Virus record (IMG/VR): IMGVR_UViG_2531839583_000010
DNA length: 37,852 nucleotides
Origin: a virus
Taxonomy: Duplodnaviria; Heunggongvirae; Uroviricota; Caudoviricetes
Strand: one strand, 5' to 3'
Shown here: piece by piece, positions 1 to 15,396 of the stretch
Layout of the letters: each line of letters starts with the position of its first letter
Numbering within the stretch: the first letter of the stretch is position 1
Notes under the pieces: model-generated
What the model saw: only the letters and a program-made list of their open reading frames with translations
Database searches by the model: none
What the model was told of the DNA's origin: nothing
Program-made: the position numbers and the translations under genes

Positions 1-1053
1 TTACGGGGTAATGCCAACCGCTGCCGCCACTTTGTCGCCACTTGGCAGCGTTGCCAGAGGATTGAAACGGAGCGCCGTTTCCAGATGATCCGGTGCCAGA
101 TGTGCGTAACGCATCGTCATTTTTATATCGTGGTGTCCGAGAATTTTTTGTAAGGCCAGAATGTTTCCACCCGACATCATGAAGTGCGCCGCAAACGTAT
201 GGCGCAGAACGTGTGTGAGTTGACCGCGAGGGAGCACGATAGACGTTTTTTCCATCACGGATAAAAATTGAAAATAGCAGTCTGTGAAGAAATTGAACCC
301 ATCAAGCGCCATGATCTCTTCGTAAAGCTCTTTACTGATAGGGATGCTTCTGTTTTTCTTCCCTTTCGTTCTGACAAAGGTAATTCGGTATTTAGTCACC
401 TGTGAACGGGTAAGATTTATTGCTTCTCGCCAGCGTGCGCCTGTGCTTAAGCAGATCTTGACTACCAGTGCCAGAATTGGGTCCTGACGTTTGCAATCAG
501 CCAGCAATTCAACAATCTGTTCATGGGTAAGCCATGCCATCTCTTTTTCTGCGATGGTGAATTTTCGCATGTTCTCCAGTGGGTTCGGATACGACCATTC
601 GCCCAGGCGGGATAGTTCGCTAAAAACACTACTTAGATAGCTTTGCTCCAGGTTAACGGTGACCGGGCTTGCTCCTTTCTTCCATTTTTCGCTGAAGTAG
701 ATCTCTCCTGTCAGGCGTTTATCTCTATAGTGGGCAAACATTTTAGAGGTGAGATCGGTTGCAATGGGATTTCCCAGAGCGTCAACCATCAACAGCAATT
801 TGTCATAGACATGCTGCCCAGCCGTCAGAGATTTACCATGTAGTTTGAACCATAGCTCAACCACGTCTTTCAGTGTTCGACGATCCACTGATTCACCCAG
901 CCAGGGTTTTGCTTCGGTTTCTTCCATCGTGTGACGCTCAAAAGCCAGAGCTTCGCCTTTGGTGGCGAATTGTTTACGCACACGACGTCCACTACGTCCG
1001 GCGGGGTAACATTCGCAAAGCCATTTTCCTGTGGTGAGTTTTCGTACTGCCAT
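1..1053 (-). CDS. int: Tyrosine integrase (P2/186 family)
   Basis: 350-aa ORF; C-terminal region HVLRHTFAAHFMMSGG...HHDIKMTMRYAHL matches the tyrosine recombinase R-H-R-Y catalytic box; sits at the prophage edge. The last ~6 codons lie left of the att core. Confidence 0.9.
   Translation of the reverse strand: MAVRKLTTGKWLCECYPAGRSGRRVRKQFATKGEALAFERHTMEETEAKPWLGESVDRRTLKDVVELWFKLHGKSLTAGQHVYDKLLLMVDALGNPIATDLTSKMFAHYRDKRLTGEIYFSEKWKKGASPVTVNLEQSYLSSVFSELSRLGEWSYPNPLENMRKFTIAEKEMAWLTHEQIVELLADCKRQDPILALVVKICLSTGARWREAINLTRSQVTKYRITFVRTKGKKNRSIPISKELYEEIMALDGFNFFTDCYFQFLSVMEKTSIVLPRGQLTHVLRHTFAAHFMMSGGNILALQKILGHHDIKMTMRYAHLAPDHLETALRFNPLATLPSGDKVAAAVGITP
19..40. repeat. Putative attL core (cgctgccgccaCtttgtcgcca), inside the 3' end of int
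   Basis: 21 of 22 nt identical to 34988-35009, which lies immediately after the ogr stop; seen directly in the sequence. Confidence 0.45.
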
Positions 1054-1131: not shown

Positions 1132-1503
1132 TCATAAGTACCGATATGATTGCGGGGCCGTTATGTTATCACCTAATGAACTTAGATGAAGCGGTTGATC
1201 ATAGATTTTTAAATTGCCAATTTCTATAGCAAAGGCTTTTTCTTTGCTATGAAAATATGAGTCAAAAAATTGTTTGCTGATACCTGCGTATTGGCTTGTT
1301 TTTTCCCATACAATACTTGGCTTGTCTTCTATAACGTCTGCAATGTCAAATTCAGCAACAACTTTACCGACAGGCATTGTTGAATAAATAACCACAGATT
1401 TTACATCCGGGTTTTTGAAAAGACCTTTCCTGAATTCAAACTTCTTTGTCCCATTAAGGATCTTTTCAACAAATTCAGGTTTTATTGACAATAATACTTT
1501 CAT
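1132..1503 (-). CDS. ASCH-domain (PUA-like fold) protein, cargo gene 3 of the cI-int cassette
   Basis: 123 aa; N-terminus LLSIKPEFVEKILNGTKKFEFRK resembles the ASCH signature (LSIkPeya..Il.GkKt.E.R); overlaps the upstream gene by 29 nt. Homology is recalled, not searched. Confidence 0.6.
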   Translation of the reverse strand: MKVLLSIKPEFVEKILNGTKKFEFRKGLFKNPDVKSVVIYSTMPVGKVVAEFDIADVIEDKPSIVWEKTSQYAGISKQFFDSYFHSKEKAFAIEIGNLKIYDQPLHLSSLGDNITAPQSYRYL

Positions 1504-2554
1504 CTACAGCACCAAGTTTAATTATATCGTCAAATTGCTTATCGGTTAATTTAACAACACCCCAACGGTTTTTAGGATTCAAACCAATTTCTTTAATTAG
1601 TTTAGCACGATTTATTCTTTTAGGTAAAGCTAGATTATATGTAAAACTAATAATGTAAGGGTATCTTCTTGTTTGATAAAATTTTTTCAATTCATTTTCA
1701 GAAAATACACTGTATCGTGCACAATATTGTATGAATTCATTTTCATTATGAAAAGAATCAATATATCTAATATCTTCAACTACACATAATGACGTTGCGA
1801 CAGAACGATAGTATGCTCTGTTCTCTTCGTCACTTGTTCTGTAAATAACTAAGATGTCATGTTTTTTTATTTTTTTTACATCATACATTCTACATATATA
1901 TATTTTTCTAATGCTATTAGCATGAGATACATCCGTGATTATATCTGGAGATTCAGTGACGAGTTTTGAATCAGGAAAAAGTTTTGTATGAAATTCAGGG
2001 TGTATTGACAATAGGTATTTATTCTCATTATTTTTATTATTTATATATGGGTAATCAGAAAGTATATCACCCGTGAGGTGATTTCTATTCATCTCTCTTA
2101 CTAAAACATTTTCTATACCATTTGCGGTTTTTTTTGTGCCATGAAGAATGAATCCATAAAGTTTGAATAGTTTTATTAGATATTCATGTTTTTCAAATAC
2201 AGTAACGTAAATATCATTAACTCTTTCTTTTAAAGCATGATCAAATATTTTTTTTAAAAAACGTTGCCCTCGTAATGTTTTTTTTGTATTGAACTTAAAG
2301 GTTCCAATTTTCAAATGTTTATGATTGATAATTGATGGGGTGACATCAGTTATTTTACCGAATTCAATTTTTAAATACATAAAACCATCAATGGTATTAT
2401 CGTCATTATAAAGCACATATGCTTTTTCTTCTGGATTAAGACTTTTTCTGTTGAACCATTCAATAAAACCGTGTTCATAGTCATTCTTTAACGAATCAAA
2501 AAATGTATCGTCAAAATTTACTTGACTGAATGGAATAAGTTTTAAATTTTCCAT
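1475..2554 (-). CDS. Hypothetical two-domain protein; C-terminal half has an ASCH-like motif, N-terminal half has weak GNAT-like features
   Basis: 359-aa ORF in an AT-rich island; C-terminal segment LLSIHPEFHTKLF...ILVIYRTSDEE echoes the neighbouring ASCH start; the N-terminal RGQRFLKKIFDHAL stretch only loosely resembles GNAT motif A. Confidence 0.5.
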   Translation of the reverse strand: MENLKLIPFSQVNFDDTFFDSLKNDYEHGFIEWFNRKSLNPEEKAYVLYNDDNTIDGFMYLKIEFGKITDVTPSIINHKHLKIGTFKFNTKKTLRGQRFLKKIFDHALKERVNDIYVTVFEKHEYLIKLFKLYGFILHGTKKTANGIENVLVREMNRNHLTGDILSDYPYINNKNNENKYLLSIHPEFHTKLFPDSKLVTESPDIITDVSHANSIRKIYICRMYDVKKIKKHDILVIYRTSDEENRAYYRSVATSLCVVEDIRYIDSFHNENEFIQYCARYSVFSENELKKFYQTRRYPYIISFTYNLALPKRINRAKLIKEIGLNPKNRWGVVKLTDKQFDDIIKLGAVDESIIVNKT

Positions 2555-2581: not shown

Positions 2582-3646
2582 TTATTTTCTATAGGTCCAA
2601 AGGTGAATAATTATATATATTACAATAGCTAAAATTGCCCCACCGATATAATATGTGCTTGTCGGTATAAATTTAAGAATAAAAGCAAAGGCAGCACCAT
2701 ATATCAAGTACGCAAAAATTTTACTGAATTTGGTTTTCGTGTTTTTAAACTTCACAACAACAGAGAAGTCATTTAGTGTTGTTTCATTATCATTAACAAT
2801 CTTCCAATGGTAAATCATAGGGTCGTGATCACCAAATGAAATACCTTTTTCGAAATATTTTGTCCATGTTTCAGACTCTAATATTCTACATCCTTTATAA
2901 CTTGAGCCAGATGCTGAACATTCATCAACAATATCTCTTATTATAAACAAATGTATTTTTAAAGGTGTGCAAGCGGCGCTCGCCAGAGTTGTAGCAATTT
3001 CTGAAGGTAGGTTTCTTTGTTCATTGATCCTAAAATCAATAATATCAGAACGCTCAATATTACTTTTGAGAAAGAGATCTTTTGGATAAAATGTTTTTAC
3101 TAAAACACCTATATCTTCATTGTTGAGTTTAACTCGAAATCTTAAATAATGTGGAGCATCCTCTGACGATAGGCAATCTTTTAGCTTGAAAACAATGAAG
3201 GTGCCATTATGTATTTTAGTTACCTTAACCCTACGATCAAGTTCGCCACCACTAAAGGTCAGATTTGTATTAACAACTAAATCACCTTTATTCGCAAGTT
3301 CTAATTTTGAATGTCTGACGTCTACTGTTTTTGTATTAATAAGATATTCATTAAAAACAGCTGTTACGAGATCTCGGCTTGACTCGAGATTTTTACTAAG
3401 ATCAGAAAAAAAACAATTTTCCTTCTCAAATGGTAAAAATATGCATATTGCACCATGATTTGCAATGGTGTCGTCATCAGGTTTTTTAAACGTAATACCA
3501 AAATCTAAATAACAAAATTTATGAGCACTTATATTCCAAAAATTTATGTGTAACTCATTAATAAAATTATTGCGTTCAGGGTTATAGGTCGAACTCGAAT
3601 TGCTCCTATAATCCCTACATCCCCAGATAGCAAAACTTTTTGACAT
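2582..3646 (-). CDS. Hypothetical protein with a large soluble N-domain and two C-terminal transmembrane helices
   Basis: 354-aa ORF; C-terminus IFAYLIYGAAFAFILKFI...YYIGGAILAIVIYIIIHLW has two hydrophobic helices; no recognised catalytic motif. Confidence 0.5.
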   Translation of the reverse strand: MSKSFAIWGCRDYRSNSSSTYNPERNNFINELHINFWNISAHKFCYLDFGITFKKPDDDTIANHGAICIFLPFEKENCFFSDLSKNLESSRDLVTAVFNEYLINTKTVDVRHSKLELANKGDLVVNTNLTFSGGELDRRVKVTKIHNGTFIVFKLKDCLSSEDAPHYLRFRVKLNNEDIGVLVKTFYPKDLFLKSNIERSDIIDFRINEQRNLPSEIATTLASAACTPLKIHLFIIRDIVDECSASGSSYKGCRILESETWTKYFEKGISFGDHDPMIYHWKIVNDNETTLNDFSVVVKFKNTKTKFSKIFAYLIYGAAFAFILKFIPTSTYYIGGAILAIVIYIIIHLWTYRK

Positions 3647-3674: not shown

Positions 3675-4328
3675 TTATACATCTGATAATACTTTTCGAT
3701 AGCATCTTGCGATGGGTTTTATATCGTCAAGCATACATTCAAAAAATGTTTGACCACTGCTAACTTTTACTCTCCCAACTGGAATTCTAACCAGATCACG
3801 AGAACTTATTTTTCCTTCTATTTCAACAATCCATTTCCCATCAATAATTTCATCAAATTTCATGTCTACCAGATAATTATCTGATAACTCAGAAAATATT
3901 GCGGGGGTAATCATATCCACCGGGAGCAAATCTTTATCAAAAATGTAAGAGGAATCACCTTGTAGCTTGCCATCTACTATTTTGTAATGTGGCAATTTTA
4001 TACCTTCTTTCGTTGCTTTAAGACGAGGAGAACCAACACCAGACACTAACCATTCGAGAGACACTCCCGTTTCTAGAGCGCACTGAATTACCCAATCAGC
4101 TGGAAAAATATCACGCATATAGCGCGTTGCCATGGTGCTCTTAGAAACACCTAAATGATCACAGAGAGCCTGACGGGTACCGAACCCATATGCTTCAACT
4201 AAACGTTCTATAGCTTTCTTACCGCCGCTATTGAAATCCACAAGTCCTCCAAAGAAATCCAAAACTCGTTGACAGATTCCAAAAGCGATCTTAAAGTTGA
4301 ACCAGAAGTGTTCTTTTGGAGCCTTCAC
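3675..4328 (-). CDS. cI: CI-type immunity repressor (phage 186 family, HTH)
   Basis: HTH region ERLVEAYGFGTRQALCDHLGVSKSTMATRY...CALETGVSLEWLVSGVG resembles the 186 CI N-domain; divergent from apl/cII as in 186. The true start may be internal (ORF is about 25 aa longer than expected). Confidence 0.7.
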   Translation of the reverse strand: MKAPKEHFWFNFKIAFGICQRVLDFFGGLVDFNSGGKKAIERLVEAYGFGTRQALCDHLGVSKSTMATRYMRDIFPADWVIQCALETGVSLEWLVSGVGSPRLKATKEGIKLPHYKIVDGKLQGDSSYIFDKDLLPVDMITPAIFSELSDNYLVDMKFDEIIDGKWIVEIEGKISSRDLVRIPVGRVKVSSGQTFFECMLDDIKPIARCYRKVLSDV

Positions 4329-7065: not shown

Positions 7066-9480
7066 ATGAGTCATGACGATATGAGCAACTCTAGCGGCTT
7101 TAACGAGGCCGCTACAGCATTTTCATGGAACGGCCCGAAAAAGGCCATTAACCCTTATCTGGACCCGGCGGAAGTTGCGCCGGAGTCTGCACTTTTAAAC
7201 CTGATCACTCTGTACGCTGCCGATAATGAGCAGGAACAGCTGCGCCGCGATGCACTGAGTGAGCAGGTCTGGGAGCGTTATTTCTTTAATGAATCTCGTG
7301 ATCCTGTCCAGCGCGAAATGGAGCAGGATAAGCTCATTAGCCGGGCAAAGCTGGCGCATGAACAGCAGCGTTTTAACCCGGACATGGTCATTCTGGCGGA
7401 CGTCAGCGCCCAGCCCACCCATATTAGCAAGCCGCTGATGCAACGTATCGAATACTTCAGCAGCCTGGGCAGGCCAAAGGCTTATTCCCGCTATTTGCGT
7501 GAGACGATTAAGCCATGTCTGGAGCGACTGGATTGTGTACGTGACAGTCAGCTGTCTGCTTCTTTCCGTTTTATGGCAAGCCATCAAGGGCTGGAGGGCC
7601 TGCTGATCCTGCCTGAAATGAGTCAGGACCAGGTGAAACGCCTGTCCACCCTGGTAGCTGCGCATATGAGCATGTGCCTTGATGCAGCTTGTGGCGATTT
7701 GTATGCCACCGATGACGTTAAGCCAGAAGAAATCCGCAAGACATGGGAAAAGGTGGCGGCGGAAACCCTGCGTCTGGATGTCATCCCACCTGCGTTTGAG
7801 CAACTCCGTCGGAAAAGAAACCGCCGTAAACCCGTACCCTATGAACTCATTCCGGGTTCGCTGGCGCGTATGTTGTGCGCCGACTGGTGGTATCGGAAAT
7901 TATGGAAGATGCGTTGCGAATGGCGGGAAGAGCAGTTGCGTGCTGTCTGCCTGGTCAGCAAAAAAGCATCTCCCTATGTCAGCTATGAAGCCGTGATGCA
8001 TAAACGTGAGCAGCGCCGTAAGTCGCTGGAGTTTTTCCGTTCTCATGAACTGGTGAACGAAGACGGCGACACGCTGGACATGGAGGATGTGGTAAACGCC
8101 AGCAGCAGCAACCCTGCGCATCGCCGCAATGAGATGATGGCCTGTGTTAAAGGTCTGGAGCTTATCGCGGAAATGCGCGGTGACTGCGCCGTTTTCTATA
8201 CTATCACCTGTCCGTCACGTTTCCATTCCACGCTCAACAACGGCAGACCCAACCCGACCTGGACAAATGCGACGGTAAGACAAAGCAGCGATTATCTGGT
8301 CGGCATGTTTGCTGCATTTCGTAAGGCAATGCACAAAACCGGGTTGCGCTGGTATGGCGTGCGGGTGGCTGAGCCGCACCATGACGGTACTGTGCACTGG
8401 CATCTCATGTGCTTCATGCGTAAAAAAGACCGCCGCGCCATCACTGCATTACTGCGTAAGTTTGCCATCCGTGTAGACCGCGAGGAGCTGGGCAACAACA
8501 CGGGGCCACGCTTTAAGTCTGAGCTGATTAACCCGCGCAAAGGAACACCGACAAGCTACATCGCGAAATACATCAGTAAGAACATTGACGGGCGTGGTCT
8601 GGCTGGCGAGATCAGCAAGGAAACGGGTAAATCCCTGCGTGATAACGCCGAATACGTTAATGCCTGGGCGTCTCTGCATCGTGTTCAGCAGTTCCGCTTC
8701 TTTGGTATTCCGGGACGTCAGGCTTACCGTGAACTTCGCTTGCTGGCTGGTCAGGCGGCAAGGCAACAGGGGGACAAAAAAGCAGGTGCGCTGATACTGG
8801 ATGACCCGCGCCTTGATGCCATCCTGGCTGCTGCTGATGCTGGTTGTTTTGCCACCTACATCATGAAGCAGGGCGGCGTACTGGTTCCCCGTAAATATCA
8901 CCTTATCAGAACCGCTTATGAAATCAACGAAGAGCCGACCGCCTATGGCGATCACGGCATTCGTATTTATGGCATCTGGTCACCCATTGCAGAGGGCAAG
9001 ATCTGCACTCATGCAGTGAAGTGGAAAATGGTTCGTAAGGCCGTTGACGTTCAGGAGGCGGTAGCCGACCAGGGCGCTTGCGCCCCTTGGACTCGTGGCA
9101 ATAACTGTCCCCTTGCTGAAAATTTGTACCAACAAGGGAAAGACAAATCAGCTGATGGGGATACCAGAACGGATATCACCCGTATGGATGACAAGGAGTT
9201 GCACGATTACCTGCACAGTATGAACAAAAAAGAACGCCGGGAACTGGCTGCAAGGTTACGCCTGGTGAAACCGAAACGGCGTAGAGACTACAAACAGCGA
9301 ATTACAGACCATCAACGACAGCAGCTCGTCTATGAACTGAAGTCCAGAGGATTTGATGGCAGCGAGAAAGAGGTCGATTTACTCCTTCGCGGCGGCAGTA
9401 TTCCGTCAGGAGCAGGCCTGCGTATCTTCTATCGGAACCAGCGTTTGCAGGAAGATGATAAGTGGCGGGATCTGTATTAA
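7066..9480 (+). CDS. A: Replication initiation protein A (rolling-circle nickase, P2 gpA-like)
   Basis: 804-aa ORF downstream of the early genes, in the position and size of P2 gene A. Confidence 0.8.
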
Positions 9481-10572: not shown

Positions 10573-11691
10573 ATGTATCTTTTCAAGTATTACCGTCCGG
10601 ACTTCTTCTTCGAGAAAGCTATTCGTTATAATGAATTATATTTTTCCGCTCCTGCGCAATTGAATGATCCTAATGATCTCAATATAGATTATCGTTTTGA
10701 TAATAAATTGAAATTATGAGATATTTTATTGCGTTCTCCTTGCGATAAATCCTATAAAAATTTGAGTCACATATTAGATTTGAGTAATTTGAAGATACAT
10801 AAGGGATTGAATCGTATTTTTAGAGGAAAAAAAATAAAAAGTAGCATTGAGTCATTAGATAGCCTGTTTGACTCACACGTTGATGAGATACGTAAGATCA
10901 TAAATGATGGTTTACTACCTATCAATGTGATTAATTCCGCTATTTATGGGAATATTCCTGAACCACGCCAATTTTTGGTCTCACTTTGCGAGAACAGTAT
11001 CAAAGAAAGGTTGTATAGGAAAATAGTTCCTGCAGTATTCAGTGTGTCATTTTCAGCTAATGCGTTAGATCGTATGATGTGGGCGCATTATGCTGCAGGC
11101 TTTAGTGGTTGTGTTGTGATTTATGAAACGCAGGATTTTAATATTAATGGCGTACCACATCCTGGAATGAAGTTAAGAGAAAATTTATTTTCATCAGATA
11201 AAATTAATTTTCCAGTTAAGCCAATAAAATATAGTAATCAAGCTAAAGAGGTTTCACTTCTAGACCCAAGCGCAAATGTTGCAGAGTTATTTTTAACTAA
11301 AAATAGATTTTGGAGATATGAAGCTGAATATCGAATGTTTATTCCAGAGGCAAATGCAGGAATAGGGAGTGAGCGGCATGTTCAAAGACACGTAAATCGA
11401 AATATTGGACATGTTTTTCATCATGATGCTAATGTTGTTAAAGGGATCATTTTTGGTCCTAGAATGTGTGAAATGAAAAAAGAAAGCATATGGAATTGTA
11501 TCAAGTCAAATATGGAGAATTCAAATTCAACAATATGTTATTTTTTTGACTCTGAGTTATCAGCATCAGGAAAGATTACTATTTCAAAAGGGCAACGAGC
11601 GGAAAAAATGAAAAATTTCCCTTTGTTCAGGAACAAGTTAAGTCAGACGGAAATGGCTAAAGTTTTGAAGGAAATTGGCATTACGAACTAA
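10573..11691 (+). pseudogene. DUF2971-like gene interrupted by an in-frame TGA (10717-10719)
   Basis: ATG 10573 encodes YLFKYYRPDFFFEKAIRYNELYFSAPAQLNDPND (DUF2971 N-motif as recalled); a TGA follows; the same frame continues to 11691 and contains MWAHYAAGFSGCVVIYE and RFWRYEAEYR (DUF2971 core motifs). The track ORF 10729-11691 starts at a TTG. Confidence 0.55.
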
Positions 11692-11756
11692 CCTAACAAC
11701 AGTGCATGCCTATGCTGCCTGAATTTGCATGACCGTTTGAGGATCGTTTTTGCTAA

Positions 11757-11781
11757 GGCCCGCCAGAACTGGCGGGCTTTT
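11757..11781 (+). terminator. Rho-independent terminator candidate
   Basis: ggcccgccag-aa-ctggcgggc followed by tttt; GC stem plus T-run downstream of the DUF2971-like gene. Confidence 0.6.
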
Positions 11782-11826
11782 GCGTGGATCAGGCACCTGC
11801 ATGAAAACCACTACACAAAGCGGGCA

Positions 11827-11845
11827 GGCGTGGCGGGGATACGAG
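11827..11845. other. Putative cos (cohesive end) site, ggcgtggcggggatacgag
   Basis: The first 13 nt match the recalled P2/186 cohesive end (GGCG[A/T]GGCGGGGA...); it sits in a short GC-rich island between two AT-rich cargo genes. Assigned from memory of the P2/186 cos sequences. Confidence 0.4.
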
Positions 11846-11978
11846 CGCGCGTTATGACAAATAGATGATTAGCCTGATTTATTTACAGCTGTATAAATGA
11901 TCACCTTGTAATTAGGTAAGTAATGTCTTCTATTATCATTGATTTGATAGGATTAATCTGTTTTTTGAGGATTAGAGG

Positions 11979-14315
11979 ATGATTGAAGAGGTAGTTATTG
12001 ACAAGGTAGGCTCATATAATGGCCCTACGCAGCTTTTACATGGACTTTCTAAATTTAACTATTTATATGGAGCTAATGGTGCAGGTAAAACAACTATAAG
12101 TAAAATTATTAATGACCCTGAACAATATCCAACATGTCCGATTAAATGGAAAAATAATATATCTTTAATAAGCTACGTATATAATAAAGATTTTGTTGAA
12201 AGAAATTTTAGTCAAGATAAAATTAAAGGTGTATTTACCCTTGGTAGCGATCTTAAGGAGGATGAAGAGAAACTAATATCTCTTAAAGAAGAAAAAAATA
12301 AGCTAATGGAATCTATTATAGCAAAGGAAAAGTTAATAGATGGTGGTGATAATGAATTAGGCGTTATTAAAAAAATCGAAGACCATGAAAAATCTTTTAA
12401 AGATTCATGTTGGAAGCAAAAAGTAAAACATGACAATGTGTTCTCAAAGGCTTTTGAGGGATTAAGGAATAGTAGTGAAAAATTTAAAGCCAGAGTGTTG
12501 GCTGAGTATGAAAATAATACATCAGAAGTTTGCTCAATAGCAGAGTTAATTGAGAAAGCAAAAATTGTTTTTTCTACTGAATTGACATCACATGTATCAA
12601 TTACAATTCCATCCTTCAATGGGATAGATGATATTTTGAGTAGGGAAGTTTGGAGTGAGCGTATCCTAGGGAAAAAAGACGTTAGTGTTTCAGACTTAAT
12701 TACAATGCTCAATAACAGTGATTGGGTTAAGGAGGGTTTAACATATTTCAGTAAATCTAATCCCAAGTGCCCATTCTGCCAGCAGGATGTAAATGATAAT
12801 ATATTTGATAATCTTTCATCATATTTTGATAAAACATATGAGTTAAAAAAAAGAGAAATCGATGCATTGGTTTTACAATATGAATATCAACTTAATAATA
12901 TCTTGAAGGCGATAGATGATATAAGGGCGATTAAATCTCCATTCATAAATTATGAAGTGTTTGAGGATAAGGCTAAGATAGTATTATCTGAATTAAACAA
13001 GAATTTTGAATTGGCAAAAAATAAACGCAATTTTTTAAGTGAATCAGTTCATTTTAGTGACTTAAGTGAAGTTGTTGATGATTTTATTTCTTTTTTGAAT
13101 GATTCAAATCTATTGATAGATAATAATAACAAAATACATAGTAATAGAAAGGTAGAGGCTAGTAATCTTTCTAAGCAGATATGGGCATATATCGTAAAGG
13201 TGGAGTTAAAGTCTGAAATAACTTCTTACCGTAGCAAATCTGATAAGTTTAATAGGACGTTACAAGGACTTAAATCTGGGATAGAAGAAGACAAAAAGAA
13301 GTTAATGTTAAATACTTCGGCTATTGAGGCAATTGAGTCTAATAAAACCAGTACTCTTCCAACTATTACAAAAATTAACAAGATTCTGGACTCTTATGGC
13401 TTCAAAAATTTTTACTTAAAACCCTCCGAAGATAAAAAGCATTATATGATAGTGAGAGATAGTGGAGATAATGCTCGTACAACCCTTAGTGAGGGAGAAA
13501 AGACATTTATCACTTTTTTGTACTTTTATAGCCTTGTTAGAGGGAGTGATAATGCATCAGGTGTTTTAGATGATCGTGTTGTAGTATTTGATGATCCAAT
13601 TTCAAGTTTAGATAGTGATATTCTGTTTATTGTAAGTTCGTTGATTAAAGATTTAATGGAGGATGTTCGTAAGGATGAAGGAAATATTAAGCAAATTATA
13701 TTCCTTACTCATAATATTTATTTTCATAAAGAGTTGACTTTTAATACCAAAAGATCCGGTAATCAAGCAATGAAAGAGGAGACTTTTTGGATTGTAAGGA
13801 AAAAAGGGAAGGTTTCATATCTTGAAAAGTGCGAATCAAACCCAATAAAAACGTCTTATGATTTGCTCTGGTGCGAATTGAGAAGAACAGACATTAATAA
13901 TAATACTATACAAAATACAATGCGAAGGATTTTGGAGAATTACTTTAAGATATTAGGTGGGATGGATATTAGGAAGCTTGAGTGTCATTTTTATGGTGAT
14001 GAAAAAATCATATTTAAATCTTTAGTGTCATGGATTAATGATGGTTCCCATTTTGCAGGTGATGATCTTTATATGAATTTAGATACGGAGTCTGTGCAAA
14101 AATATTTAATTGTTTTTCAGAAGATATTTGAATGTAGTGAGCATACTGCCCATTACAAAATGATGATGGGTGAGTTTTATAAACCGTTAAATGAGTCACT
14201 TCATCTACAAGATGAGTTTGATATAGATGATAGTGCGAATGATGAGTATGCTTCGTCAAAAATTGAGATAAAAGATGGAATAAACACATCTCTACATAGC
14301 AACACATATTTGTAA
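11979..14315 (+). CDS. RloC-like ABC/AAA_13-type ATPase with coiled-coil CxxC hook and C-terminal HEPN-like (R-x4-H) domain; candidate anticodon-nuclease-type defense protein
   Basis: Walker A GANGAGKTT (aa 31-39, nt 12069-12095); CPFC (aa 264-267, nt 12768-12779) inside a K/E-rich predicted coiled coil; LSEGEK signature (aa 503-508); Walker B/D-loop VVVFDDPISSLD (aa 534-545); RKLECH (aa 665-670, nt 13971-13988). AT-rich. Confidence 0.6.
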   Translation: MIEEVVIDKVGSYNGPTQLLHGLSKFNYLYGANGAGKTTISKIINDPEQYPTCPIKWKNNISLISYVYNKDFVERNFSQDKIKGVFTLGSDLKEDEEKLISLKEEKNKLMESIIAKEKLIDGGDNELGVIKKIEDHEKSFKDSCWKQKVKHDNVFSKAFEGLRNSSEKFKARVLAEYENNTSEVCSIAELIEKAKIVFSTELTSHVSITIPSFNGIDDILSREVWSERILGKKDVSVSDLITMLNNSDWVKEGLTYFSKSNPKCPFCQQDVNDNIFDNLSSYFDKTYELKKREIDALVLQYEYQLNNILKAIDDIRAIKSPFINYEVFEDKAKIVLSELNKNFELAKNKRNFLSESVHFSDLSEVVDDFISFLNDSNLLIDNNNKIHSNRKVEASNLSKQIWAYIVKVELKSEITSYRSKSDKFNRTLQGLKSGIEEDKKKLMLNTSAIEAIESNKTSTLPTITKINKILDSYGFKNFYLKPSEDKKHYMIVRDSGDNARTTLSEGEKTFITFLYFYSLVRGSDNASGVLDDRVVVFDDPISSLDSDILFIVSSLIKDLMEDVRKDEGNIKQIIFLTHNIYFHKELTFNTKRSGNQAMKEETFWIVRKKGKVSYLEKCESNPIKTSYDLLWCELRRTDINNNTIQNTMRRILENYFKILGGMDIRKLECHFYGDEKIIFKSLVSWINDGSHFAGDDLYMNLDTESVQKYLIVFQKIFECSEHTAHYKMMMGEFYKPLNESLHLQDEFDIDDSANDEYASSKIEIKDGINTSLHSNTYL

Positions 14316-14364: not shown

Positions 14365-15396
14365 TTAGTTAAGCTCATATGGAGAAAATTCTATAAGTTT
14401 TTCCCCGAGCCATGCATTAATTTCTCTAAATCGTTTTTGCAAAGGAATTAATTCATTTATCACAAAAACCTTACTAGCCTTCTCCACATCCCCAAACCCC
14501 CCGACATTATTAGGCATAATCCCCATCATTTGCGGTGGAACGCGGTGTGCCGCCATCATGTCATCGCGACTAACATTTTTGATATTCAGAAACTCATCCT
14601 TCGCTGCGACTTCTGATAACGGGATAATCTGAAGCCCGTCCTTTTTGCCGTTAGGTGAGTACATAAACAGGTTGCGGAAGTTGCCCGGCCCTTTGGCGCT
14701 TTTCATCGCATTGCGGAGGTTGTTCACATCCTCCTGGTTTTGCGCGGCATCGGTCATGTACATGATAAAGCCCGCATGACTGCCGTTAATGTAATACTTG
14801 CGACGGAACAGCGTGGCGGACTCGTTGAGCAGGGCTGACGGAATGGCAGAAAGATAACCGGGCAGGCCGTAGATCTCCTGATTAATATCCGGTTCCATCA
14901 GATGAAAAATGCTGCCTTTCGTGAACTGATACGGCTGGGGTGTCATACCGTATTGCACAAACCAGTAGGTATCCAGGTCTAATCCGCGTCGGGTGTATTT
15001 TGCCAGCGCAGGTTCAAGGGCGATCACTTCACCGAAGCGGTTCGTGCGTTTCTCCAGATAGGCGTTGCCAAATACCAGATAGTCCTGCACAAAACGCGAA
15101 AAAGCCTGCTGGCTGAGCAGAGGATGAGGGATATAGGTACTGGTCAGAATGTTGCACTTTACTGCAATCGGGGAACTGTGATGCACGGCAGCGCGGAAGG
15201 TGCGCGCCAGTCCGTCAAAGCTGACGGGCGGCTCATACCAACGGTCCATCTGTACGCATTCCACATAGTCCAGTAATTCTCGGCGGTCCAGAACAGGAAC
15301 GGGATCGCCGAAGCTGAATGCTTCGGCTGAAGTTTGGTTTTTATGCTGGATCTGATTCGTCGCCGCAGTGCGGTTTTTCTTATTCTTTCCCATCAA
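14365..15396 (-). CDS. Q: Portal protein (P2 gpQ-like)
   Basis: 343 aa (P2 Q is 344 aa); adjacent to and co-oriented with the terminase large subunit. Confidence 0.9.
   Translation of the reverse strand: MMGKNKKNRTAATNQIQHKNQTSAEAFSFGDPVPVLDRRELLDYVECVQMDRWYEPPVSFDGLARTFRAAVHHSSPIAVKCNILTSTYIPHPLLSQQAFSRFVQDYLVFGNAYLEKRTNRFGEVIALEPALAKYTRRGLDLDTYWFVQYGMTPQPYQFTKGSIFHLMEPDINQEIYGLPGYLSAIPSALLNESATLFRRKYYINGSHAGFIMYMTDAAQNQEDVNNLRNAMKSAKGPGNFRNLFMYSPNGKKDGLQIIPLSEVAAKDEFLNIKNVSRDDMMAAHRVPPQMMGIMPNNVGGFGDVEKASKVFVINELIPLQKRFREINAWLGEKLIEFSPYELN

Follow-up and report, generated by a model that had tools for sequence, protein, structure and literature searches.

Genomic setting of the cassette

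The DNA analysed here is the IMG/VR virus record IMGVR_UViG_2531839583_000010 (Caudoviricetes), a stretch of 37,852 nucleotides (nt) that we refer to as the window, and our subject is a pair of adjacent genes at positions 1132-2554, close to its left end. One of these encodes an ASCH protein of 123 amino acids (aa), the other a fusion protein of 359 aa in which a GNAT-fold domain is followed by a PUA-like domain. Both proteins matched the PADLOC candidate system PDC-M11 (components A and B), and it is near certain that the two genes represent a standard copy of this two-gene cassette, also described as (PIN-)GNAT-EVE plus ASCH. At the left end of the window, five closely spaced minus-strand genes follow one another as cI, T3, GNAT-EVE, ASCH and int. 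These genes and the features of the cassette are the following, where ZmASCH denotes the ASCH protein of Zymomonas mobilis.

3675-4328, minus strand: 186-type CI repressor of 217 aa, which opens the leftward lysogenic gene string (Pfam Phage_CI_repr and Phage_CI_C, E ~1e-30)
2582-3646, minus strand: T3, a protein with two transmembrane (TM) segments, open reading frame (ORF) of 354 aa
1475-2554, minus strand: GNAT-EVE (GNAT-reader) fusion protein of the PADLOC PDC-M11A type, 359 aa, with PDC-M11A and phrog_6345 matches
2060-2554, minus strand: GNAT-fold domain, residues ~1-165, with a degenerate coenzyme A motif A, K-x-x-L-R95-G96
1478-2029, minus strand: PUA-like reader domain, residues ~176-359, EVE/ZmASCH-like, lacking the GxKxxExR octapeptide and carrying a conserved, poorly modelled loop, PDS...DVSHxNSIxKIY
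1475-1503, minus strand: dual-coding overlap of 29 nt, …VDESIIVNKT(stop) over MKVLLSIKP…, which gives translational coupling
1132-1503, minus strand: ASCH protein of the PADLOC PDC-M11B type, putative eraser/antidote, 123 aa, with Pfam ASCH, PDC-M11B and ZmASCH matches
1429-1452, minus strand: ASCH octapeptide G18-T-K20-K-F-E23-F-R25 in the 123-aa ASCH protein
1-1053, minus strand: integrase of 350 aa (Pfam Int_N and Phage_integrase), last gene of the leftward gene string

The spacers between int, ASCH, GNAT-EVE, T3 and cI measured 78, -29, 27 and 28 nt, respectively. The guanine-plus-cytosine (GC) content of the ASCH, GNAT-EVE and T3 genes was 0.29-0.32 compared to ~0.45-0.60 in the flanks, which indicates that these three genes are imported cargo. 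The region was 99.9% identical to a prophage of Escherichia coli strain C2 that is inserted beside rcdA/ybjJ, and the neighbouring apl, cII, fil, dam and replication genes are typical of phage 186; among deposited phage genomes, a megablast search gave zero matches. We regard it as near certain that the cassette is low-GC cargo of a 186/P2-like E. coli prophage, inserted between its cI and int genes. In view of this location, it is probably transcribed together with the repressor in lysogens. A promoter scan revealed promoter-like sites at chance level, and a terminator scan identified no convincing minus-strand terminator between cI and int. Within the GNAT-EVE coding region, a short inverted repeat (ATCACCCGTGAGGTGAT, 2066-2082) whose stem measures 6-7 bp scored as terminator-like on both strands and may be due to chance.

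The two genes form a coupled pair

The 1967 homologue clusters of the 359-aa protein and the 1668 of the 123-aa protein establish that both ORFs are real genes. The ATG of the ASCH gene lies inside ...GTA GAT GAA AGT... of the GNAT-EVE gene, and the overlap encodes both the conserved ...DESIIVN end of GNAT-EVE and the conserved MKVLLSIKP start of ASCH. A sequence-only reading of this DNA, made by a model, had described the two genes as overlapping by 29 nt and translationally coupled. Its coordinates, the peptide starts that it quoted and the overlap (shared positions 1475-1503) were correct, and the call of translational coupling was likewise accepted.

Linkage was assessed in a sample of 80 loci from 80 species, which belonged to the Gamma-, Beta-, Alpha- and Deltaproteobacteria, Bacteroidota, Bacillota, Verrucomicrobiota, Acidobacteriota and Campylobacterota. 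The ASCH gene adjoined GNAT-EVE in 79 of the 80 loci, and the remaining locus stops 329 nt past GNAT-EVE. Both genes were on the same strand in 75 of the 80 loci and overlapped in 74 of these 75. With the conserved N-terminus of ASCH as the anchor, the overlap measured exactly 23 nt in 63 of the loci and 29 nt in another 8. This showed that GNAT-EVE and ASCH are a strictly co-inherited, translationally coupled pair. As for other partners, AAA_17 kinase-like genes made up 11 of 144 immediate neighbours. In a Vibrio locus (L007, 7089-8052) and a metagenomic variant (L116, 1182-2146), ASCH lies on the opposite strand, does not overlap GNAT-EVE and is paired with an AAA_17/AAA_18 kinase-like gene; the metagenomic variant also has a split system with a stand-alone, canonical, Pfam-positive GNAT of 155 aa.

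The cassette was carried by 312 of 5426 complete E. coli genomes (~6%), O157:H7 among them, in at least three sequence variants, and at least 80% of the pair was present in 308 of the 312 genomes with a match. It occurs in at least six phyla at about 50% identity. In 186-like prophages of E. coli and Serratia, the pair is located immediately downstream of the repressor and co-oriented with it. It is also downstream of the repressor in Aeromonas, with two insertion sequence transposase genes and a TIR-like gene in between. In an O157:H7 lambdoid prophage, at the lambda rexAB position, and in a Klebsiella Rac-like prophage, it again lies immediately downstream of the co-oriented repressor. This recurrent position suggests that the pair is expressed in the lysogen.

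Conceivably, the cassette could serve the prophage itself, with GNAT-EVE modifying host or phage nucleic acid against host restriction or the pair acting as an addiction module, and with no defence of the host against other phages. According to a suggestion by Bell et al. (2020, BMC Biol), the GNAT-EVE of prophages might shield phages from host restriction-modification, and the strict linkage of the two genes fits an addiction module. However, the location in the lysogenic (repressor) unit and outside the early lytic genes speaks for a function in the lysogen, and the cassette is also found outside prophages and is listed by PADLOC as a defence candidate. We consider this explanation very unlikely.

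The free ASCH protein

The 123-aa ORF (1132-1503, minus strand) starts with MKVLLSIKPEFVEKILNGTKKFEFRK. Its product passed the Pfam ASCH profile (PF04266) with 28.8 bits against a cut-off of 21.2 bits and matched PDC-M11B over nearly its full length with an E-value of 2.2e-49. The closest relative in the PDB was ZmASCH (5GUQ; E 8e-9), which aligned over nearly the full length, so that the ASCH assignment of the sequence-only reading was borne out. A ZmASCH sequence fragment, in turn, scored an E-value of 5e-27 on the PDC-M11B model, and this relates the sole structurally and biochemically studied 'family 2' ASCH protein to the second component of the cassette. ZmASCH is encoded by ZMO0922; the ZMO0921 product is referred to as 'hypothetical' in the literature.

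In an alignment of 121 ASCH family members, G18, K20, E23 and R25 of the octapeptide were 100% conserved, while Y40, T42, G46, W66, Y83, P117-Q118-S119 and Y122 were also invariant or nearly so. Y40 and S119 are the equivalents of ZmASCH Y47 and S128. ZmASCH binds both single-stranded (ss) RNA and ssDNA and cleaves ssRNA in a Mg-dependent manner; nucleic-acid binding is reduced in the Y47 and S128 mutants, and the Y47 mutant also cleaves RNA less. According to a 2026 preprint, the Lys and Glu residues of the octapeptide are required for the deacetylation of N4-acetylcytidine (ac4C) in tRNA by TthASCH, EOLA1 and TRIP4, and all 19 ASCH proteins tested in that study, including ZmASCH, deacetylated E. 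coli tRNA in vitro. Judged from its sequence, the free ASCH protein has kept all residues with a known role in the binding of nucleic acids and in amide hydrolysis. The earlier suggestion that this protein may remove acetyl groups was thus in agreement with the retention of the Lys/Glu/Arg octapeptide of ac4C-deacetylating ASCH proteins.

These activities also bear on an explanation from ordinary metabolism, in which an acetyltransferase and an ac4C amidohydrolase would serve nucleoside salvage or detoxification and be present on the prophage by chance. YqfB-type ASCH proteins indeed hydrolyse free ac4C, but ZmASCH, the closest characterised relative, is inactive on this substrate. Moreover, a reader domain, a conserved gene overlap, mobility across phyla at ~50% identity and a location beside the repressor are unlike housekeeping genes, and we regard this explanation as extremely improbable.

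As a separate observation, the NCBIfam model PRK12279 ('50S ribosomal protein L22/unknown domain fusion protein') covered the whole ASCH protein at model positions 191-310 (E 5e-13). This type of ASCH is accordingly fused somewhere to ribosomal protein L22, which hints at a connection with the ribosome or RNA.

The GNAT-reader fusion protein

The 359-aa protein matched PDC-M11A over nearly its full length (E-values of 1e-134 and 9.6e-134) and phrog_6345 with an E-value of 8e-152. An AlphaFold2 model built on 47 homologues, with a predicted local distance difference test score of 87 and a predicted template modelling score of 0.85, displayed a GNAT fold in the N-terminal domain and a PUA-like fold in the C-terminal one. 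The N-terminal half had been described as weakly GNAT-like from the letters, and at the level of the predicted model both folds proposed for this protein were recovered. Residues R95, G96, R98, K101, K102, Y116, H123 and E148 of the GNAT domain were invariant at 46-81% overall identity across phyla. Searches of PADLOC, NCBIfam and the PDB gave zero matches to toxin-antitoxin systems consisting of a GNAT toxin and a ribbon-helix-helix (RHH) protein, such as TacAT, AtaRT and KacAT; the partner is an ASCH protein and not an RHH protein.

Residues 181-193 (LLSIHPEFHTKLF), near the beginning of the C-terminal half, had been taken for a paralogous ASCH-type start. This was supported at the level of the fold and only weakly by sequence. 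Unlike the 123-aa protein, the C-terminal half had no Pfam ASCH (PF04266) match and no octapeptide, and its EVE (PF01878) matches were all sub-threshold. Profile-profile comparison (hhalign) of the fused module with the free ASCH protein aligned the first ~29 residues only, a LLSI(K/H)PEF strand-helix unit, with an E-value of 5e-4 and a probability of 32%. As a looser alignment yielded nothing reliable beyond these 29 columns, we rejected paralogy of the two PUA modules at the sequence level and limit it to the fold. The strand that bears K-x-x-E-x-R in ASCH enzymes corresponds to K217-I-Y219-I-C221 in the fused module, with K, Y and C in the places of K, E and R. It is preceded by a strongly conserved, poorly modelled loop of 20 residues that includes P194, S196, L198, D208, S210, N213 and S214. 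The structural neighbours of the domain and their scores were as follows.

ZmASCH (5GUQ): 13.0, the best match
EVE proteins 2GBS, 2AR1 and 1WMM: 11.3-11.1
THYN1 bound to 5-methylcytosine (5mC) DNA: 10.4
VcaM4I, a 5-hydroxymethylcytosine (5hmC)-dependent nuclease: 10.0
YTH domains: ~9
YqfB and TRIP4, catalytic-type ASCH proteins: 7.5 and 7.3

PD-T4-3 and the N-terminal domains of McrB were also among the neighbours. In the absence of the octapeptide (K217, Y219 and C221 instead), the fused module is best read as a reader domain of the EVE/ZmASCH branch, and not as a second amidohydrolase or eraser.

Since these neighbours include the sensors of type IV restriction enzymes, the cassette could also provide direct, modification-dependent immunity. 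The EVE-like domain would then sense hypermodified bases of phage DNA (5mC, 5hmC) as type IV restriction enzymes do, the GNAT domain would mark or block the DNA or a bound phage protein, and ASCH would clear off-target marks from self nucleic acids, with no suicide of the cell. The similarity to THYN1 with 5mC DNA, VcaM4I, the McrB N-terminal domains and PD-T4-3 is in line with this idea, as are the protection against T-even phages by BapA, a PUA/ASCH-like 5hmC glycosylase, and the acetylation of DNA bases proposed by Iyer et al., to the extent that Bell et al. (2020) relay it. On the other hand, the cassette has no nuclease, and the known fusions to PIN RNase domains, the ssRNA and tRNA activities of ZmASCH and the fusion of an ASCH-like domain to L22 point to RNA. 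We regard direct immunity as unlikely.

T3 and other upstream genes

T3 consists of a ~300-aa soluble part followed by two C-terminal TM helices (about nt 2597-2734). Its conserved residues include H33-x-N35-x-W37, D48-x-G50, F98-N99-E100 and Y167-x-R169-x-R171, as well as D204-x-R206-x-N208..R211, R254..E257..W261 and H280-W281-K282. No relatives of T3 were found in Pfam, PADLOC, PHROG or the PDB, and none of 110 diverse members of the family had a Pfam match. A word-indexed search recovered 25 clusters only, and a full HMMER scan identified 1025 representatives at 50% identity with E<=1e-3, 185 of them with E<=1e-30. A C-terminal TM-like segment was present in 145 of the 150 best representatives.

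In every context that we inspected, T3 adjoined GNAT-EVE or a GNAT/ASCH module. This was the case in enterobacterial P2-like prophages and in Aggregatibacter (L069), and in a Vibrio metagenome-assembled genome (L039) and Methylophilus (L064) T3 is convergent with the module. In a non-prophage locus, a T3 homologue with 26% identity overlaps a PIN-GNAT-EVE gene by 4 nt. Of five more divergent representatives, one adjoins PIN-GNAT-EVE plus ASCH (P0267), one GNAT-EVE (P0415) and one, where the contig ends, a PIN N-terminus (P0273); another has as neighbours a stand-alone canonical GNAT together with divergent ASCH and AAA_17 genes (P0300), and yet another lies between two GNAT-EVE genes (P0350). 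With this constant association, T3 looks like a dedicated accessory component of the module. It was present in about one-tenth of the GNAT-EVE loci (8 of 88 by upstream-gene clustering, plus L039 and L064). T3 is a previously unreported partner, being absent from Bell et al. (2020), Matelska et al. (2017) and PADLOC. In one locus (L118, 233-2915), a T3 homologue has a complete GNAT-EVE gene on one side and the beginning of another GNAT-EVE-like gene on the other, which suggests tandem or duplicated systems.

The same slot holds other genes in other prophages. These lie directly upstream of the pair, with spacers of 2-14 nt, and encode a 260-aa DUF3644-like protein (L002, 7501-8283), a 250-aa TIR/nucleoside-deoxyribosyltransferase-like protein (L009, 5234-5986) and a coiled-coil protein of 524 aa that is weakly similar to LeoBC and ZorA (L007, 4420-5994). 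The DUF3644-like, TIR-like and coiled-coil genes may be swappable partners or independent cargo of a hotspot. The idea that a swappable effector always occupies the upstream slot was rejected as a general rule, because 29 of the 88 loci had no co-oriented upstream ORF and most of the other upstream genes were singletons; the only recurring ones were T3, a ~520-aa Vibrio protein, the 260-aa DUF3644-like protein and a ~180-aa family. In many loci the slot is empty, and the core is the pair itself.

Other features of the window

A second low-GC island (GC 0.30-0.37) was found at 10729-14315 on the plus strand, flanked by the replication gene at 7066-9480 and by the portal gene at 14365-15396. It encodes a DUF2971-like protein of 320 aa, which matched PADLOC PDC-S31 (E 2e-17), and an AAA_13 ATPase of 778 aa, which matched PDC-S06 (E 1e-266) and, more weakly, LmuB and PrrC. 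Situated between genes for replication and packaging, this island probably represents another candidate defence cargo. In the RefSeq entry of the E. coli C2 prophage, the genes for the dam methylase and the replication endonuclease (L001, 9149-11347) are annotated as frameshifted. In the window, the replication ORF at 7066-9480 is intact (804 aa), whereas the near-identical C2 copy is annotated as frameshifted; the window may have been derived from a different, intact copy of the prophage than the annotated C2 one.

A possible mechanism and its weighing

Systems of this kind have been described before. Bell et al. (2020) reported GNAT-like domains that carry EVE at their C-terminus and often PIN at their N-terminus, nearly always with an ASCH gene and often with an AAA_17 ATPase gene in the operon, and they located the PIN-less form in prophages of beta- and gamma-proteobacteria. 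The cassette of the window, a PIN-less form between cI and int of a 186-like E. coli prophage next to rcdA, conforms to this. They predicted toxin-antitoxin behaviour and suggested aminoacyl-tRNA as a target, and the earlier description of the system by Iyer et al. is cited by them for the proposal that DNA bases are acetylated. PIN-fused forms were listed by Matelska et al. (2017) as PIN_15 and PIN_17, and PADLOC users call PDC entries unpublished or never-verified candidates.

We tentatively favour the view that the cassette is a toxin/antidote-type anti-phage module, expressed in the lysogen, that would act by abortive infection through the reversible acylation of nucleic acids. Through its PUA-like reader, the fusion protein would dock on a base that is flipped out and possibly modified, in RNA, with tRNA as the best guess, or in DNA, and the GNAT domain would attach an acyl group to the amine of a base or to aminoacyl-tRNA. 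The coupled ASCH protein, a putative amidohydrolase and nucleic-acid binder of the ZmASCH type, would remove this mark or otherwise neutralise the writer. Infection might upset the balance, for example when host gene expression is stopped, so that the modification would accumulate, translation or replication would be blocked and the infection would be aborted. In about a tenth of the systems, T3 could have an accessory role as sensor or effector. As the target, RNA is a better guess than DNA, considering the fusions to PIN, the activities of ZmASCH on ssRNA and tRNA and the ASCH type that is fused to ribosomal protein L22 in NCBIfam. HTH (helix-turn-helix)-ASCH fusions fit an autoregulating antitoxin.

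Several points weigh against this proposal. The literature that we found on PDC-M11, on GNAT-EVE and on ASCH in connection with acetyltransferases or anti-phage activity consists of computational descriptions only, and our search of it returned no experimental work. In a Pfam profile scan, the 359-aa protein had no match at all, GNAT included. Its acetyl-CoA motif A (Q/R-x-x-G-x-G/A) is degenerate and reads K-x-x-L-x-G; when the family sequence K-G-T-L-R-G was aligned to QKHGLG of PaiA, only the last Gly (G96) and the basic first position were kept. According to Matelska et al. (2017), related PIN-fused GNATs lack motif A and probably have no acetyltransferase activity. With this degenerate motif, the presumed writer could be inactive or use another donor, in which case the RNase-capable ASCH protein may be the effector. 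ZmASCH, which is also an RNase, left ac4C levels undiminished in vivo, and this too would allow ASCH to be an effector and not an antidote. Furthermore, many family loci lie outside obvious prophages or defence islands. GNAT-EVE was frameshifted or truncated next to an intact ASCH gene in three loci (L003, 6428-7499; L019, 7247-8182; L098, 6649-7053), and the reverse was not seen among the loci; with three events and a three-fold larger GNAT-EVE gene, this asymmetry is not significant, and we rejected it as evidence for toxicity. Lastly, the gene order, with the writer first and the antidote second, is unusual for a classical type II toxin-antitoxin system. The same order is known from DarTG.

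The first of the possibilities raised by motif A can be carried further: the GNAT-like domain would be catalytically dead, the fusion protein would be a sensor or regulator that binds RNA or DNA, and ASCH, as an RNase of the ZmASCH type, would be the real effector or toxin. The degenerate motif, the loss of activity argued for in the literature, the Mg-dependent cleavage of ssRNA by ZmASCH and the invariance of the nucleic-acid-binding residues of ASCH are all consistent with this. Yet eight invariant GNAT residues at 46-81% identity across phyla would be unusual for a dead scaffold, the split variant in L116 has a canonical, Pfam-positive GNAT, and the HTH-ASCH fusions resemble antitoxins more than toxins. 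We consider a dead GNAT domain quite unlikely.

An extended form of the favoured acylation mechanism would give T3 a larger part. In this three-component, membrane-coupled version, T3 would be the sensor or effector of an immunity based on the reversible acylation of RNA or DNA bases, with a writer-reader fusion and an ASCH eraser, expressed in lysogens from the repressor operon. It would represent a new abortive-infection chemistry in the RexAB niche, in ~6% of E. coli genomes. We hold this version to be unlikely.

The sequence-only reading had seen an acetyl writer beside acetyl-removing or acetyl-sensing modules and suggested an acetylation-based toxin/antidote or sensing mechanism. This interpretation is reasonable and in essence rediscovers a published prediction, as it coincides with proposals in Matelska et al. 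(2017) and in Bell et al. (2020), the latter with reference to Iyer et al. It went too far in so far as the fused module lacks the octapeptide and is not a second eraser, and it did not recognise the PDC-M11 catalogue entry, the lysogenic cI-int operon of a 186-like prophage or the link to T3. What is new here is modest: the ZmASCH family link, the catalytic asymmetry of the two PUA modules, the conserved overlap, the repressor-side slot and the T3 partner.

If the writer/reader/eraser proposal is true, the cassette would use the reversible acylation of nucleic acids for immunity or addiction, a chemistry that would be new for immunity. It would also provide a biological role for the ac4C-eraser activity of ASCH proteins and for the orphan ZmASCH structure. 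The cassette is common and has been on prediction lists for years. The ZmASCH link, the catalytic asymmetry, the repressor-side slot and the membrane partner turn a vague prediction into a directly testable one.

Comparison with known systems

The GNAT toxins TacT, AtaT, KacT and ItaT are paired with RHH antitoxins. The present cassette resembles these systems in its GNAT fold, its two-gene organisation and a possible aminoacyl-tRNA target, but no specific sequence similarity was detected, and here the partner is an ASCH protein, the GNAT domain is fused to a PUA-like reader and the gene order is reversed. DarTG is a toxin-antitoxin and defence system based on reversible ADP-ribosylation of DNA, in which the writer is encoded upstream of the eraser. 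The logic of a writer upstream of an eraser, and the connection to phage defence, would be common to both, whereas the group transferred here is presumably an acyl group, the present system is known from sequence, and the folds and the chemistry are unrelated. In phage lambda, rexAB occupies the slot directly downstream of the immunity repressor in the same orientation, and one Rex partner is a membrane protein. The cassette uses the same genomic slot and has a membrane protein in its three-gene version; in the absence of a relationship in sequence or fold, this is a positional analogy only.

Compared to ZmASCH (ZMO0922, PDB 5GUQ, ASCH family 2), the 123-aa protein shares the GxKxxExR octapeptide, the equivalents of Tyr47 and Ser128 and the C-terminal PQS motif. 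ZmASCH differs in its length of 148 aa, is named helix-turn-helix domain-containing protein in the PDB, and its activities are from in vitro work only. The closest counterpart of the cassette is the system of Bell et al., Matelska et al. and PDC-M11. The window differs from it in having no AAA_17 gene and an additional upstream gene for the two-TM protein T3, and while the literature labels the fused domain EVE, its best structural match here was ZmASCH. In all other respects that we compared, the two are alike: the same two proteins, the same domain order, an ASCH gene directly downstream, and a PIN-less form that resides in a gamma-proteobacterial prophage.

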